Origin: Enterobacteria phage phiC600P9
Strand: one strand, 5' to 3'
Sequence record: MZ681930.1
Length of the DNA stretch: 64,000 nt
The notes under the pieces were generated by a model. That model was given only the letters and a program-made list of their open reading frames with translations, was not told the DNA's origin and searched no databases. Of this stretch, positions 40,154 to 61,780 are shown piece after piece. The number at the start of each line of letters is the position of its first letter. Position 1 is the stretch's first letter. The translations under genes and the position numbers were made by a program.

Positions 40154-40624
40154 TTAATCATGTTTCCACACCCCATCGGTATTTGACCAAAGTCGCTGAT
40201 TATCTGATCCTCGCCACAGCTTTTTGGTCGGAAGATTTTTCTCATACTTCCCATCAATAATAACATCAACATATTTAAGCATTTCTAGTTGTTTAATATC
40301 CTCAAACTTATATCCGGTCCACAACCAAATGCTTTTATTGGGATAAAGATTTTTTACTGTTTGAACAATGCAATGAATCACGTCTCTGTTATCAGGATAA
40401 AGAGGGTCACCTCCGGTTATAGTTAATCCTTCTATATAATCATTATTCAAACATTCAATCAATTGTTCTAATGTTTCACCAGTGAATGGAATACCATTTC
40501 TAGCATTCCATGTTGATTTATTATAACACCCTTCGCATTTATGCAAACACCCTGTAACGAAAAGAACGACCCTGCATCCAGGGCCATTCACAAAATCACA
40601 GGGATAAAATCTATCGTAATTCAT
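40154..40624 (-). CDS. nrdG: anaerobic ribonucleotide reductase activating protein (radical SAM)
   Basis: 156-aa ORF with Cys cluster CLHKCEGC. Confidence 0.85.
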   Translation of the reverse strand: MNYDRFYPCDFVNGPGCRVVLFVTGCLHKCEGCYNKSTWNARNGIPFTGETLEQLIECLNNDYIEGLTITGGDPLYPDNRDVIHCIVQTVKNLYPNKSIWLWTGYKFEDIKQLEMLKYVDVIIDGKYEKNLPTKKLWRGSDNQRLWSNTDGVWKHD

Positions 40625-42438
40625 TGGTGTTTAACCCTATGCATGATTTCTTTATTTTTGCCGAGATTAAATCCGCGTTCGTTCGGATTTCCAAGATAAC
40701 CGCATGTTCTTCTTATTGTGTTCATCTTTTTAGGATCAGTTTCTCCACAAATAGAACAAACAAATCCGTTTTCAGTAGGAGTCATTTCATGGGTACTTCC
40801 ACATGTAAAACATTTATCTACTGGCATATTAACACCGAAATAATCTAAATGTTGTGCAGCATAATCCCATACAGCCTCAAGACCTTTTAGGTTATTTTTC
40901 ATATCAGGAAGTTCAACATAAGAAATGTGACCACCTGTCGCAATGAAATGATACGGAGCTTCGCGAGAAATCTTTTCAAACGGTGTAATATTTTCTTCTA
41001 CTGAAACGTGGAAACTGTTAGTATACCAGCCTTTATCGGTAACATCTTTTACACTTCCATATTTTTCGGTATCAAGTTTACAGAAGCGATAGCACAGGTT
41101 TTCAGCAGGAGTAGAATACAAACTAAAAGCAAAACCAGTTCTTTCAGTCCACTGCTTAAGACGAGCATTCATTTTAGTCAAAATTTCTTGCCCAATATCA
41201 CGACCGACAAGAATATTCAATTCGTGAATACCAATGTATCCTAAGGACACTGAACTTCTACCGTTTTTAAATAACTCAATTATATCGTCATCAGGTTTAA
41301 GACGAACCCCGAATGCACCTTCTTGATAAAGAATAGGAGCAACAGTCGCTTTAACTCCTTTTAAGGAACTGATTCTACACATCAAAGCTTCAAAACATAA
41401 ATCCATTCGTTCATTGAACAATTCGGCAAATTTCTGTTCATTGAACTGTGTTCCAATATAAGAATCTAACGCAATTCGAGGAAGATTCAGTGTTACAACA
41501 CCAAGATTATTACGTCCATCAAGAATTTCATTACCAGTCGAATCTTTCCATACGCCCAAGAAACTACGACAACCCATTGGAGAAACAGGAATAGATGAAC
41601 CAGTGATAGCTTTATTGTTCTTAGCCGAAATGATGTCAGGATACATTCTTTTGCTTGCACACTCTAGAGCAAGCTGCTTAATATCATAGTTCGGATCGTC
41701 TTTATAAAGATTAACACCTTCTTCAACGAACATAACAAGTTTAGGGAAAATAGGAGTTATCCCGTCACGACCGAGACCTTTAATACGATTTTTCAGAATT
41801 GCTTTCTGAATCATTCGTTCAGTCCAGTCAGTTCCCGTACCAAATGTAATTGTTACAAAAGGCGTTTGCCCGTTTGAACTAAAGAGAGTATTTACTTCAT
41901 ATTCATAAGCTTGAAATGCATCGTATACGTCTTTTTCTGTTTTAGATTGAGCATAATTCAACGCATCGGCGATTTGCCATTTTTCTGCATCTTCAATATG
42001 TTTTGCATAGGTGCGTTTAACATAAGGAGAAAGTACTTTATCTACATTAGCAAAAGTCGTTCCGCCATATTGATGGGAAGCAACTTGCGCAGTAATTTGT
42101 GCCATAATTGCAGTAGCAACGCCAATTGATTTAGGAGTTTCAATCTGTGCATTACCAAGCTTAAATCCGTTCTCAAGCATTCCTTTTAAATCTACTAAAC
42201 AACAATTAGTAAATGGAAGAGCAGGGGAATAATCAATATCATGGAAATGAATAATTCCGCTTTCATGCGCTTTCATAATAAAAGACGGGACCATATTTTT
42301 GGCAATGTGTTTAGACACAATACCAGCCATAAGGTCCCGTTGAGTTGGAAAAACACGAGAATCTTTATTAGCATTCTCGTTTAAAAGGTCTTTATTAGTT
42401 TTATGAATCAATCCTTCAATTTCTTTTTCAATTGTCAT
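40621..42438 (-). CDS. nrdD: anaerobic ribonucleoside-triphosphate reductase, uninterrupted
   Basis: 605-aa ORF with C-terminal glycyl-radical region and zinc ribbon (CFTCGS...CSICG); no intron. Confidence 0.9.
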   Translation of the reverse strand: MTIEKEIEGLIHKTNKDLLNENANKDSRVFPTQRDLMAGIVSKHIAKNMVPSFIMKAHESGIIHFHDIDYSPALPFTNCCLVDLKGMLENGFKLGNAQIETPKSIGVATAIMAQITAQVASHQYGGTTFANVDKVLSPYVKRTYAKHIEDAEKWQIADALNYAQSKTEKDVYDAFQAYEYEVNTLFSSNGQTPFVTITFGTGTDWTERMIQKAILKNRIKGLGRDGITPIFPKLVMFVEEGVNLYKDDPNYDIKQLALECASKRMYPDIISAKNNKAITGSSIPVSPMGCRSFLGVWKDSTGNEILDGRNNLGVVTLNLPRIALDSYIGTQFNEQKFAELFNERMDLCFEALMCRISSLKGVKATVAPILYQEGAFGVRLKPDDDIIELFKNGRSSVSLGYIGIHELNILVGRDIGQEILTKMNARLKQWTERTGFAFSLYSTPAENLCYRFCKLDTEKYGSVKDVTDKGWYTNSFHVSVEENITPFEKISREAPYHFIATGGHISYVELPDMKNNLKGLEAVWDYAAQHLDYFGVNMPVDKCFTCGSTHEMTPTENGFVCSICGETDPKKMNTIRRTCGYLGNPNERGFNLGKNKEIMHRVKHQ

Positions 42439-58317: not shown

Positions 58318-58779
58318 TCATTGAGTTTTAATTACTGCTTTAGAAGCCTTTCCAGGTAAACGACGACTGTTGATAATTGCCATCCTGCATTGAAGCGACG
58401 GGTCTTTGAACTTCGCATTAGGTTTACAAACTGTAAATCCAAGCCAAAGATTTCCATCTGTGATTTCTAAACGCCCAGGACGATATTCAACCCCATCAAT
58501 AAAATCCTCATCAATGTCAGGACGCGGAGGCATACTCAGGAATTCATTAACTTCTAAAACATGGTCTTTTATTTTATGGAATAATTCAAAAACATATGTC
58601 TCATCAATCTCCCGTTGAATTGCACGATCAAGAAGATGCTGAGAATATTTTAGATGAAACGATGAGACCCCTGCTGCTTTTGATGCCTCACGAATCTCAT
58701 TGTTAATTTGACGAAACTCCGACTCAAAGTGACGACGAAGCTTATTTCGTCGGATAAAAACTTCTGTGTTGATAGTCAT
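58318..58779 (-). CDS. regB: site-specific endoribonuclease RegB
   Basis: 153-aa ORF, T4 RegB length and position. Confidence 0.75.
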   Translation of the reverse strand: MTINTEVFIRRNKLRRHFESEFRQINNEIREASKAAGVSSFHLKYSQHLLDRAIQREIDETYVFELFHKIKDHVLEVNEFLSMPPRPDIDEDFIDGVEYRPGRLEITDGNLWLGFTVCKPNAKFKDPSLQCRMAIINSRRLPGKASKAVIKTQ

Positions 58780-58806
58780 GTTATTCTCCTCTTAACTGAT
58801 AGAAAA

Positions 58807-58836
58807 ATTATACCACAGTCAAGAGGAAAAGTAAAC
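58807..58836 (-). promoter_or_regulatory. early promoter (GTTTAC-N18-TGGTATAAT) for regB
   Basis: plus strand attataccacagtcaagaggaaaagtaaac. Confidence 0.55.
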
Positions 58837-58838
58837 AA

Positions 58839-59159
58839 TTATTCTTTAAATCTAATCAATTTATTCATAGACTTTGAAACTTCTGCACGAACCTCATGTA
58901 GGTTTTTGAGCTGTTCAAGACGCTGCTCATAGTAAGCAATTTCATCTTCTTCGAGACAGTCCTGCGAATCTTCTTTAAGATAACGTGCATAGTCCTGGAA
59001 AGCTTTACGGACTACTTCCTGGAAGTCATCAAGACTTTGAATTTTCTTAGGAGCAACAGATACACGACGAGGGGCAGTATAATACTCATAACCAAACCCT
59101 GCGCTTAATTGAGCCATTAATATTTTTCCTCTGGTTGGAACACAGCACGACAAGCCCAC
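58839..59159 (-). CDS. hypothetical protein
   Basis: 106-aa ORF. Confidence 0.5.
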
Positions 59160-59419
59160 ATACTGGCTTCTTTGAGTTTCGTTTTAGCAATAGTTAACTG
59201 ATCGAGGCTTTCAGCATAATTCTTCGCGAATTCACAGTCTTCACAATTATCTAGTGCTTCCCAAAATTCATCGTATAAAGCATCAAAGATAAGTCCTAAA
59301 CGAACTTCAGCGTCTTTGATAGCATTCACTTTACCGATTTTCTCTTCAGTGTGCGGCTTATAACCCTTAATATCTTCAATCATATTTGACTTCCTCACCA
59401 GTACATAAATCATATTCAA
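59117..59419 (-). CDS. hypothetical protein
   Basis: 100-aa ORF. Confidence 0.5.
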
Positions 59420-59597
59420 CTAAACGAATAGGTTCATGAATGCCATATCCCTGAACAGAAATTTCTGTCGTGGGATAAATTCCATCAATATCGCCCATAT
59501 TCCACGCTTCATTAAATTGCTGTTCGCCTGAATTACTAAACCATTCGGCGAAAGCATTTAGCACATCTTCAGAACCTTCAATAATTATCTTTGCCAT
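59376..59597 (-). CDS. small hypothetical protein
   Basis: 73-aa ORF coupled to the GrcA-like gene. Confidence 0.45.
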   Translation of the reverse strand: MAKIIIEGSEDVLNAFAEWFSNSGEQQFNEAWNMGDIDGIYPTTEISVQGYGIHEPIRLVEYDLCTGEEVKYD

Positions 59598-59971
59598 TAC
59601 AAACTCTCGGTAAAGGTACGAGCGATAACGTCGCGCTGCTGTTCCGGAGTCAGAGAGTTAAAGCGAACTGCATAACCGGATACACGGATGGTCAGCTGCG
59701 GATATTTTTCCGGATGCTTAACTGCATCTTCCAGAGTTTCGCGACGCAGAACGTTAACGTTCAGGTGTTGACCACCTTCAATTTTAACTGTAGGCTGTTG
59801 CTCAATTTCAATTTCACGGGCATGCAAACCATAGAAAATTTCTGGGTCTACAAAAGAGTCCTCTTTAAAGGTTTTAGATACAATAATTCGTGCTTGAATA
59901 CCATCTTCAAAATAAATAGTACCTTTATGTGTGCCTTCAAGAATTTGATATGCTTTCATATAACCTCTCAA
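59597..59971 (-). CDS. autonomous glycyl radical cofactor (GrcA/YfiD-like)
   Basis: 124-aa ORF; C-terminal ~60 aa near-identical to E. coli GrcA including glycyl-radical motif RVSGYAV; this DNA is markedly GC-richer than its surroundings. Confidence 0.85.
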
Positions 59972-60297
59972 TTAGAAAATAAATTTATCCAAGATTGTTC
60001 TTTAATTAAAAATGGCTCAGAATCATATGCCATTAAACTCTGTGTGATTAGTCCTTTAAAAGGCCCATCAATAAATTCCATGGTAAAATATGGAATTTTA
60101 TTCATTAGCCGTGCATTAGGAGCAGTGCACAAAACTCTGCATCCTTTGAATACGCCTTTTTGTAATTTGTATTGCTTAGGATAAAATTCGCTTAAAATGT
60201 TATTTTTTGCCAAAATTTCAAAATGATTCACCAATTTATTTTTAATAGTTTTTGGTGAAAAATAAAGATATTCGAAAAGCTGAGTGTCTGTCATCAT
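59968..60297 (-). CDS. hypothetical protein (start revised to the Met overlapping the upstream stop)
   Basis: track ORF 59968..60348; ATGA-coupled start [10 protein letters not shown] at about 60297 is more likely. Confidence 0.45.
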
Positions 60298-60833
60298 TGC
60301 ATTCCGATTACGAAAAACTGTGGACGAGTAATACCACCAATACAACATTTAATATTACAGCAGCAGTGTACAGTGTCAATATGGACACTATAAATCTTAT
60401 CCATATCAGGAGATTTGACAGGCTCATCAATTATATACAAAATTCGCGAAAGCTTTAAACCTCTGAACTTGCTTCCTTTATTACCGATAAAACTGCGCAC
60501 AGAATCAGTAAATAAACGAAAACGTATATCATCATTAGAATAACGCGAAAATTCCTTTTTGATGCTATTTGCAGAAATTTTAGCGTAAGCTGAAGTATTA
60601 GAAAGAACAATAACTGTTCCACCGTCATACAACCAATTAGCGGCAAAATTAGTTACTGCAGTTGATTTACCGGATTGACGTCCACCATCTAGTCGAAGTG
60701 TGCAATACTGCTTAAGTAAGTCTTCAAATGGTGGGATATAATCGTTTTTACAAATTTCTTCTACTCTAGCATCAGAATAGTGTGTAAAAGCATTCATCAG
60801 GGATAGATAAGGACCAGTTAAAAATGTTCTCAT
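60294..60833 (-). CDS. P-loop NTPase with Cys-rich C-terminus
   Basis: 179-aa ORF; Walker A GGRQSGKST, Walker B-like ILYIIDE, tail HCCCNIKCC. Confidence 0.5.
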   Translation of the reverse strand: MRTFLTGPYLSLMNAFTHYSDARVEEICKNDYIPPFEDLLKQYCTLRLDGGRQSGKSTAVTNFAANWLYDGGTVIVLSNTSAYAKISANSIKKEFSRYSNDDIRFRLFTDSVRSFIGNKGSKFRGLKLSRILYIIDEPVKSPDMDKIYSVHIDTVHCCCNIKCCIGGITRPQFFVIGMQ

Positions 60834-60972
60834 TTCTTCTCTCTAAGTTTGGGCCATTCCGTGGCGCATGAATTGTCCATTTCTGTATTTACCCATTACC
60901 GCACTTGGGCTCGACCTTATTACAGTTGGCGGGAATCCCTCACAGAATCATGAGGTCCAGGTTGTTCCCATA

Positions 60973-61446
60973 TTATTTGAACGATTTAACGTACTGAATA
61001 GAACCTTTACTATTCACGAAAGCGATTTTACCATTTTTATTATACATGGTAGCAGTACGCTGATAGCCATAAGTTTGCTTACCAGATTGATAACCAACTA
61101 ATGCAAAATTATCTTCACCCATTTTATTCTGTTTAGCGCGAATGCGTTCATGACCATGTGCCATAAGAACCTTAGCATCACCAGTTGCAATGGATCGACG
61201 AGTTTTTTCATCTTCAACTGTATTAACAAAGTCGTCAAATGAATCAAATTTAGCATGAGATTTATTATACAGTTTTCCATCTACTGCATAATTATATCCC
61301 TGTACATCCATCTCAACTTCTGTACCATCATCCAATACAGCAGTGATTTTCTGTCCTTTTTTAAATTTCAAAAGATCAGTAAAAGATTCAGCAATAATTT
61401 GAGAATTAATAGCTGCTTCAGTAATAAATTCTTGATATGTTTTCAT
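60973..61446 (-). CDS. internal (capsid-packaged) protein with capsid targeting sequence
   Basis: 157-aa ORF beginning MKTYQEFITE, the T4 IP targeting-sequence signature; at the ipII/ipIII locus next to e. Confidence 0.7.
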   Translation of the reverse strand: MKTYQEFITEAAINSQIIAESFTDLLKFKKGQKITAVLDDGTEVEMDVQGYNYAVDGKLYNKSHAKFDSFDDFVNTVEDEKTRRSIATGDAKVLMAHGHERIRAKQNKMGEDNFALVGYQSGKQTYGYQRTATMYNKNGKIAFVNSKGSIQYVKSFK

Positions 61447-61462
61447 GTGTATCCTTTAATTT

Positions 61463-61780
61463 TTATTCTTTAGGGAAGTTTTTAGAATATGCATCATAAA
61501 GCTTATTTCCAATACGGCGGAAAACTCTAGCCGCAAAACGATTTTCTGGGTTTTTAATCATGATTTGCATCATATAAGTACCCGCGTCAGAAAGAGCTTC
61601 TTCATAGTACCCGTTAATTTCTTTAAGAGTCCTACGTTTACCACCAGGACCATCAACAGTGATTTTCCATTTACCTGTAGAAGTGCGACTTGGCGGCTCA
61701 ACTTGTTCAATCCAGATATAACCGCCTTCTACACGTTGTCCTGCAGCAGATTCTGCAATAAATTCTTTATAGGTTTTCAT
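61463..61780 (-). CDS. internal (capsid-packaged) protein with capsid targeting sequence
   Basis: 105-aa ORF beginning MKTYKEFIAE. Confidence 0.7.
   Translation of the reverse strand: MKTYKEFIAESAAGQRVEGGYIWIEQVEPPSRTSTGKWKITVDGPGGKRRTLKEINGYYEEALSDAGTYMMQIMIKNPENRFAARVFRRIGNKLYDAYSKNFPKE

Follow-up and report, generated by a model that had tools for sequence, protein, structure and literature searches.

How does a T4-type phage come to carry a gene that, along one half, reads as phage DNA and, along the other, as the DNA of its host, and what would such a gene do during infection? The gene that raises this question lies on the minus strand at positions 59597-59959 of the window, by which we mean the whole 64,000-nucleotide stretch of phage phiC600P9 DNA analysed here (MZ681930.1). 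An initial annotation, made from the sequence alone, had described it as a GrcA-like gene captured from the host, with an AT-rich phage-type N-terminus grafted on. The gene is the Tequatrovirus orthologue of T4 vs.6 (Y06I), coding for a 120-residue autonomous glycyl radical cofactor, and both vs.6 and the function of its product in the repair of pyruvate formate-lyase (PFL) are already known.

The coding sequence, found in the ORF list and annotated in MT630408.1, consists of 120 codons and a TAA and encodes a GrcA-like protein. MT630408.1 (phiC600P9, Tequatrovirus) is 100% identical to the window over the 775 bases compared, the window coordinate being the record coordinate minus 1, and hundreds of T4-type phages share 98-99% identity with these 775 bases around vs.6. 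The raw minus-strand ORF extends over 59597-59971 and gives 124 residues from a TTG at 59971 that overlaps the stop codon of the gene before it. The true start is almost certainly the ATG at 59959, from which the 120-residue product (MKAYQIL...) is read, because a GAGG ribosome-binding site precedes it at 59964-59967 (minus strand; the sequence shows 4 nt between this site and the ATG, and on its 5' side the site adjoins the TGA, at 59968-59970, that ends the vs.7-like gene), because MKAYQIL or a close variant forms the N-terminus in nearly all T4-family vs.6 homologues, and because MT630408.1 is annotated in this way. At the other end of the gene, the sequence and the alignments show a phage-specific stretch at 59597-59609 (minus strand), the last four codons of which (ACC GAG AGT TTG) carry four synonymous differences from E. 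coli grcA; their GAGAG stands upstream of the next gene, an entry of the ORF list at 59376-59597 that begins at 59597 and whose ATG overlaps the TAA of vs.6 (TAATG, 59595-59599). The vs.6 genes of the Jiaodaviruses likewise end phage-type, GAGGCACTATAATG.

The position of vs.6, between vs.7-like and vs.5-like genes and upstream of acb2 (vs.4) and regB, is kept in phiC600P9, AR1, KP179, Roth01 and EP32a, and T4 shares the block vs.7 - vs.6 - vs.5 - vs.4 (Acb2) - vs.3 - regB; the AR1 orthologue is annotated vs.6, and the phiC600P9 record annotates an autonomous glycyl radical cofactor. The neighbouring ORFs include T4 lysozyme, regB, thymidine kinase and a macro-domain protein. A scan of 58700-61000 for promoters and terminators gave counts no higher than in shuffled controls, and vs.6 appears to lie inside a multi-gene minus-strand transcription unit. 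A plus-strand ORF at 59591-60184 (197 aa) was rejected as a gene, being an antisense artefact of vs.6 and vs.7. Two genes 3' of vs.6, the ORF at 59117-59419 (minus strand) contains an Acb2/Tad1 hairpin domain (Pfam PF24729, E 1.1e-19) and is probably T4 vs.4/Acb2, an anti-CBASS sponge, which would place a counter-defence gene in the same operon as a metabolic spare part. Elsewhere in the region, the adjacent ORFs at 60973-61446 and 61463-61780 (minus strand) both begin MKTYQEFI(T/A)E, resembling the capsid-targeting leader of T4 internal proteins. A tblastn search of the window with an approximate T4 DenV query returned no match, and the T4 denV position seems unoccupied in the window.

The protein encoded by vs.6 differs from that of T4 at a single position (119/120 aa identical; Q54 in the window against P54 in T4). 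Pfam Gly_radical (PF01228) matches it over residues 64-105 (2.7e-18), and the best solved structure is E. coli GrcA (6OWR, E 9e-42), followed by residues 697-759 of PFL (E 5e-26). By translation, motif position and alignment to GrcA, the glycyl radical site, Gly95, is encoded at 59675-59677 (minus strand) within RVSGYAV; it corresponds to G102 of GrcA and G734 of PFL, and the radical glycine, which the initial annotation had expected to find, is thus conserved residue by residue. The protein shows the traits of the GrcA class: it is a stand-alone protein of 120 aa with a terminal Gly_radical domain and the RVSGYAV motif, its N-half is homologous to GrcA residues 1-60 in profile-profile comparison, and its domain is equivalent to PFL residues 693-759, as judged from the sequence matches to 6OWR and PFL 697-759. 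Its score against the NCBIfam GrcA equivalog (TIGR04365, IPR011140), 154.9 bits, is nevertheless below the cutoff of 170, whereas E. coli GrcA scores 234; this shortfall is explained by the diverged N-half, as profile positions 25-126 alone were matched. Membership in the T4-family vs.6 orthologous group, phrog_1209, follows from a full-length match (residues 1-120, 5.7e-63) and from gene position. The protein is not a PFL (TIGR01255, a barrel of about 760 residues with Cys418/Cys419), since only positions 680-744 of that profile were matched, with 89 bits against a cutoff of 994. The C-terminal domain of PflB (697-759; 2PFL, 1H16) is a homologous fold unit with the radical glycine, and is the piece that the spare part replaces; only the last 63 or so residues of PflB correspond to vs.6, which is without the catalytic barrel, and the DNA of the two is 79%, not 100%, identical. 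The label pyruvate formate-lyase that vs.6 bears in some phage records is therefore a misnomer. Other records name it 2-ketobutyrate formate-lyase, ribonucleotide reductase subunit, acetyltransferase-related protein or hypothetical protein, and PHROGs lists phrog_1209 as of unknown function, with the biochemistry published in 2001.

Residues 61-120 of vs.6 are identical to residues 68-127 of E. coli GrcA at 60/60 positions, G95 included, and the assignment of the C-terminal ~60 codons to the GrcA/YfiD domain in the initial annotation was correct, down to the segment it had quoted. Identity of the protein alone, however, is no evidence of capture, because these 60 residues are near-invariant across genera: they are also 60/60 in several genera, e.g. 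Serratia, Erwinia and Pectobacterium, and one residue off in Pasteurellaceae, whereas the corresponding DNA of these bacteria is just 77-89% identical over 183 nt. Only identity of the DNA is diagnostic, and here it is found with E. coli. By BLAST, 59597-59781 matches E. coli grcA at 181/185 positions (97.8%) in 5,426/5,426 complete E. coli genomes, and a base-by-base alignment with grcA of E. coli ER1709 gives an unbroken 172/172 nt at 59610-59781 (minus strand). This tract, which encodes the structured glycyl-radical domain, covers gene nt 179-350 of vs.6; 5' of gene nt 179 the DNA identity between vs.6 and E. coli grcA falls to about 45%, so that the alignment places the break at nt 178/179 and leaves the last four codons phage-type.

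The composition changes with the identity. The core of the tract (59612-59779) has a GC content of 50.6%, as against 33.3% in the 5' part of vs.6; window GC is 34.6% (sd 4.1% in 168-nt windows), and the core, the GC-rich 3' half already remarked upon from the letters, is the highest 168-nt stretch in the 64 kb, its value being reached by 0.02% of windows. When the window was compared with E. coli genomes by megablast, the vs.6 block was the sole matching part, the same block also being 79% identical to pflB. Over the 168-nt core, identity is 91.7% to Citrobacter and 82.1% to Salmonella, compared with 100% to E. coli, and an unnamed Escherichia species (MOD1) matches at 180/183 positions over the C-terminal region. 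The host origin of the 3' half of vs.6 is thus supported by comparison of the sequences. Contamination or an assembly artefact was rejected as a source of the mosaic, which occurs in the same frame in hundreds of independent phage genomes. The direction of transfer is from host to phage, because the block has the composition of the host, because it is universal in E. coli, where it stands in the ung-grcA context, and because host cores diverge in step with host taxonomy.

The 5' half (59782-59959, minus strand; 33% GC), delimited by identity matrices and aligned with host N-halves by hhalign, is AT-rich and phage-type, and here the initial annotation was right about the host origin of the 3' half (172/172 nt) and wrong about a foreign phage N-terminus. 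An hhalign comparison of the N-halves of ten diverse phage proteins with those of ten host GrcA proteins gives a probability of 97.2% (E 4.3e-11, 60 columns, 27% identity), and intermediate forms of the N-half, with the elements IQI, SxWL, ARCLVAK and YREV, are present in phages from human metagenomes. The vs.6 protein and E. coli GrcA (YfiD, 6OWR) therefore have in common an N-half joined to a structured Gly-radical half, the C-terminal 60 residues, 172 nt of DNA and the radical glycine motif, but the phage N-half is about 27% identical, 7 residues shorter and AT-rich, and the phage gene lies in an early-gene operon rather than in the ung-grcA context. In GrcA, the binding and activation of cPFL depend on residues 1-60, which are disordered, and residues 61-127 are structured and dock into PFL (PMC8683613). 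vs.6 was noted among the few T4 ORFs of unknown function kept in 6/6 T4-like genomes (Nolan et al., 2006; PMC1524935), and a tblastn search places it in 1,588 phage records, T5-like and jumbo phages among them. Judged by the homology of the N-half and by this distribution, vs.6 is an old phage homologue of grcA, and the host segment was written into a pre-existing gene, not the reverse.

If so, the age of the gene and the age of the host tract are separate matters, and related phages were compared in the 168-nt core, in the two phage-type parts of the gene and in its flanks. Relative to the window allele, T4 is 96-98% identical in the flanks, 98.3% in the 5' part, 86.7% in the last 15 nt and 99.4% in the core; for a Mosigvirus-type locus, L007, the values are 66-73%, 89.3%, 80% and 98.8%, and for the Mosigvirus EP32a they are 45-74%, 88.1%, 80% and 95.2%. 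All these cores are E. coli-like (95-100%), and between the window and L007 the core is far better kept than the flanks (Fisher p 2e-20). In the 889 nt surrounding the core, L007 and EP32a share 98.9% identity, yet 7/168 core sites differ, and at 6/7 of these L007 agrees with E. coli (p 0.011). The eight differences between the EP32a core and E. coli are all at third positions (8/8), and 6/8 are GC-to-AT; by this pattern the EP32a core looks like the product of decay after an older conversion, and that of L007 like a fresher one. T4 and the window, which otherwise differ at a few synonymous sites, are separated by a single core difference (1 nt/168) at gene nt 219, where the window has the K-12-type C and T4 has T. 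The same site segregates in E. coli: exact matches to a 61-nt probe centred on nt 219 occur in 1,267 genomes for the C version and in 2,970 for the T version. L007 has a G there, and the shared polymorphism could reflect recurrent mutation at a free third position.

In phages of Klebsiella the core is of another type. In the Jiaodaviruses KP179, Roth01 and L028, vs.6 is syntenic and agrees with the window gene in length and in mosaic boundaries. Its 5' half is phage-type and shares 73-74% identity with that of the window, but its core belongs to the Klebsiella type: the core encodes LLDAVEH, has a GC content of 55-57%, and is 92-97% identical to the closest sampled Klebsiella grcA allele (97.0% at most), compared with 86% to E. 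coli. The Klebsiella alleles, which encode a protein that NCBI names from K. variicola and are not those of K. pneumoniae proper, are the nearest to the Jiaodavirus cores among the 83 host alleles compared. The Klebsiella core has 95-99% identical counterparts in 108 phage records; there the match begins at the same codon and ends about 15 nt before the stop. KP179 and Roth01 show no excess of core differences over flank differences (p 0.64), and this pair was left out of the evidence. A smaller patch was found in contig L023, a putative Haemophilus phage by its sequence, which has 2 mismatches to Haemophilus grcA in 58 nt, including a 56-nt perfect run, where its sister contigs have 7-14 (p 0.0014). 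In searches with the Salmonella grcA core, no phage record reached 90% identity, so tracking of the host is not universal. Karamvirus (CC31), RB43, KP15 and the T5-like phages have retained the protein, but no sampled host exceeds about 84% identity to their cores (139-154/183 nt), and the same limit of about 84% applies to the cores of the Aeromonas and jumbo phages.

Several further occurrences of GrcA-like genes were noted. The Klebsiella phage vB_Kpn_AM_K4 (288 kb; L169, 2324-2686) carries a complete Jiaodavirus-type vs.6 (5' half 96-97%, core 95-98%) with flanks that are without similarity (about 44%) and adjoin tRNA genes; here vs.6 has apparently moved whole, as a cassette, between phage lineages. 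The T5-like phages (L045-L070, T5 itself being L049) encode a 122-residue GrcA-like protein with a core at most 76% identical to E. coli or Salmonella DNA, which may represent a separate, older acquisition; its C-terminus (...TFTQAM) looks closer to PflB than to GrcA. A full-length grcA is present on a plasmid record (L105, Klebsiella sp. WOUb02 plasmid unnamed4, 275 kb). The IMG/VR loci L031 and L072-L082, all on short contigs, were left out of the comparison; these loci, filed as viral, are probably host or prophage-flank DNA. L031 has a canonical host-type grcA (MITGIQITKA...), and the C-terminal ends of L072-L082 look PflB-like.

We consider it probable that vs.6 is an old T4-family homologue of grcA, the structured C-terminal half of which has repeatedly been overwritten by the allele of the host through homologous recombination, and which provides a spare part for PFL. 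A broader claim, which we hold to be likely, if less firmly, is that host-to-phage gene conversion has a standing hotspot in the vs.6 of strictly lytic T4-type phages, with the domain reset to the allele of the current host; the candidate cases are Tequatrovirus and Mosigvirus with E. coli, Jiaodavirus with Klebsiella, and the patch in the putative Haemophilus phage. The E. coli core shared by Tequatrovirus and Mosigvirus could also have spread by phage-to-phage recombination after a single host event, which would lower the number of independent host events, although the Klebsiella core would still demand a second one. Other readings were weighed against it. The DNA identity falls abruptly at nt 178/179, from 100% to about 45%, and the GC step is sharp, as would be seen had illegitimate recombination in a recent ancestor of Tequatrovirus joined a 3' fragment of host grcA, once, to a phage N-terminus that was AT-rich and unrelated. 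Such a one-off chimera is unlikely: the N-half is homologous to that of GrcA over its full length, which already contradicts a fusion; the gene is present across the T4 family, with cores unlike those of hosts; the Klebsiella phages have the same gene, boundaries and synteny with a Klebsiella core; and the phage-type last four codons make the host tract internal, not a terminal fusion. It is very unlikely that a complete grcA was captured once, in the distant past, and that purifying selection alone has kept the 3' half host-like. The C-terminal 60 residues are indeed near-invariant across Enterobacterales and Pasteurellaceae, but selection on the protein leaves synonymous sites free, and 8-25% of nucleotides are different between hosts that have the same protein, which holds for CC31, RB43 and KP15 as well; the phage cores match E. 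coli specifically or Klebsiella specifically, and this synonymous-site identity to one host species refutes ancient capture alone. Identity by itself has no direction, and the phage might have donated the 3' half to the grcA genes of E. coli and Klebsiella; we give this the least credence of all, since the block has host-like GC (50-58%) in a phage of 35% GC, is found with ung in all 5,426 E. coli genomes, and differs among hosts as their taxonomy does.

The remaining competitor concerns the job of the protein and not its origin, which it leaves as in the recurrent overwriting of an old grcA homologue: vs.6 would be a spare part for another glycyl radical enzyme, e.g. the phage NrdD, instead of PFL. 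NrdD, which the window also encodes, belongs to the glycyl radical enzymes, a role of vs.6 in nucleotide metabolism was speculated upon by Nolan et al. (2006; PMC1524935), and it is conceivable that other enzymes of this class have spare parts too (PMC8683613). We regard this as quite improbable, as the C-terminal domain is that of host GrcA and its match to PFL 697-759 is far above those to other glycyl radical enzymes, as vs.6 and nrdD are 17 kb apart, and as the PFL role put forward in the initial annotation is one already published for T4 Y06I. According to Wagner et al. (2001, BBRC 285:456), in the account given in PMC8683613, T4 Y06I and E. coli YfiD are activated by PFL-AE and restore the activity of oxygen-cleaved PFL. 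At 99% identity to Y06I, the window protein is predicted to share this spare-part function.

During infection, host PFL-AE would install the radical on Gly95, and the structured C-terminal domain would replace the piece that PFL loses on oxygen cleavage at Gly734, so that PFL activity would return. Because the phage shuts off host expression, host GrcA would not be replenished and the phage would supply the spare part itself. PFL could in this way be kept working in micro-oxic or anoxic infection, as in the micro-oxic gut, where it would convert pyruvate to acetyl-CoA and formate and sustain ATP formation via acetate kinase. Mulliez et al. reportedly identified formate, in 1995, as the reductant used by class III ribonucleotide reductase, and a formate link of vs.6 to the phage NrdD is plausible. 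The genes themselves are not neighbours, in disagreement with the suggestion that vs.6 sits with nrdD/nrdG: the latter are at record positions 40154-42438 and vs.6 at record positions 59598-59960, 17-19 kb and about 45 genes apart.

The extent of the host tract suggests how the overwriting might work. The N-half, which matches the disordered half of GrcA, would have drifted to phage composition, its fast evolution leading to the loss of homology to host DNA there; in the C-half, constraint on the protein would keep the DNA close enough to the host gene to recombine, as a near-invariant protein allows short perfect runs to persist. Perfect phage-host runs of 17-35 nt are seen in most vs.6 lineages, unconverted ones included. 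The host tract begins at GrcA codon 67, and this pattern of homology would confine conversion to a region that starts at about codon 60 and does not quite reach the stop; the local host allele would thus overwrite the C-half in several lineages, with the tract filling the usable homology from codon 60 to about codon 117. Past the stop of vs.6 host homology would end, and for the gene that follows the phage would need a ribosome-binding site of its own (GAGAG/GAGG) as well as the TAATG overlap. After a conversion, the synonymous sites of the tract would decay towards AT until the next event. The route may be a homologous patch or gene conversion during infection, and the machinery is probably the phage's own UvsX and gp46/47, acting on fragments of host DNA. 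T4 degrades host DNA and uses hydroxymethylcytosine in place of cytosine, so that recombination between phage and host might be expected to be rare. Our literature search returned no description of the vs.6 mosaic or of recurrent host-to-phage conversion at this gene, and a T4 genome review outside that search might note the DNA identity to yfiD.

A parallel can be drawn with cyanophages. Mosaic cyanophage psbA genes, formed by intragenic host-phage recombination, are said to have been described by Zeidner et al. in 2005 and Sullivan et al. in 2006. In both cases a lytic T4-like phage swaps internal segments of a metabolic gene with the host copy and patches of composition are left behind. The gene, the hosts and the habitat are different, and in vs.6 only the structured half is swapped, the rest having diverged beyond recombination.

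For specialists in T4 or in glycyl radical enzymes the biochemistry of vs.6 is of textbook level, and the finding as first submitted adds nothing new to it; the labels pyruvate formate-lyase, ribonucleotide reductase subunit and hypothetical protein, which vs.6 bears in many records, need correction. The evolutionary pattern, 172 host-identical nucleotides inside a gene of a virulent, host-DNA-degrading phage, with the Klebsiella allele in the Klebsiella phages, may merit a short follow-up. It illustrates that the age of a transfer cannot be read from protein identity to a host gene alone, and recurrent conversion would explain a GC island that annotation pipelines may otherwise take for contamination or for a fresh capture. 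The vs.6 tract would also be a natural and easily assayed reporter for the rate of recombination between lytic phages and the host chromosome. If the resetting of the domain is adaptive and fits the spare part to the PFL and PFL-AE of the local host (LEDAVKH in E. coli, LLDAVEH in Klebsiella), vs.6 would be a phage gene that tracks the alleles of its host by recombination and not by mutation.
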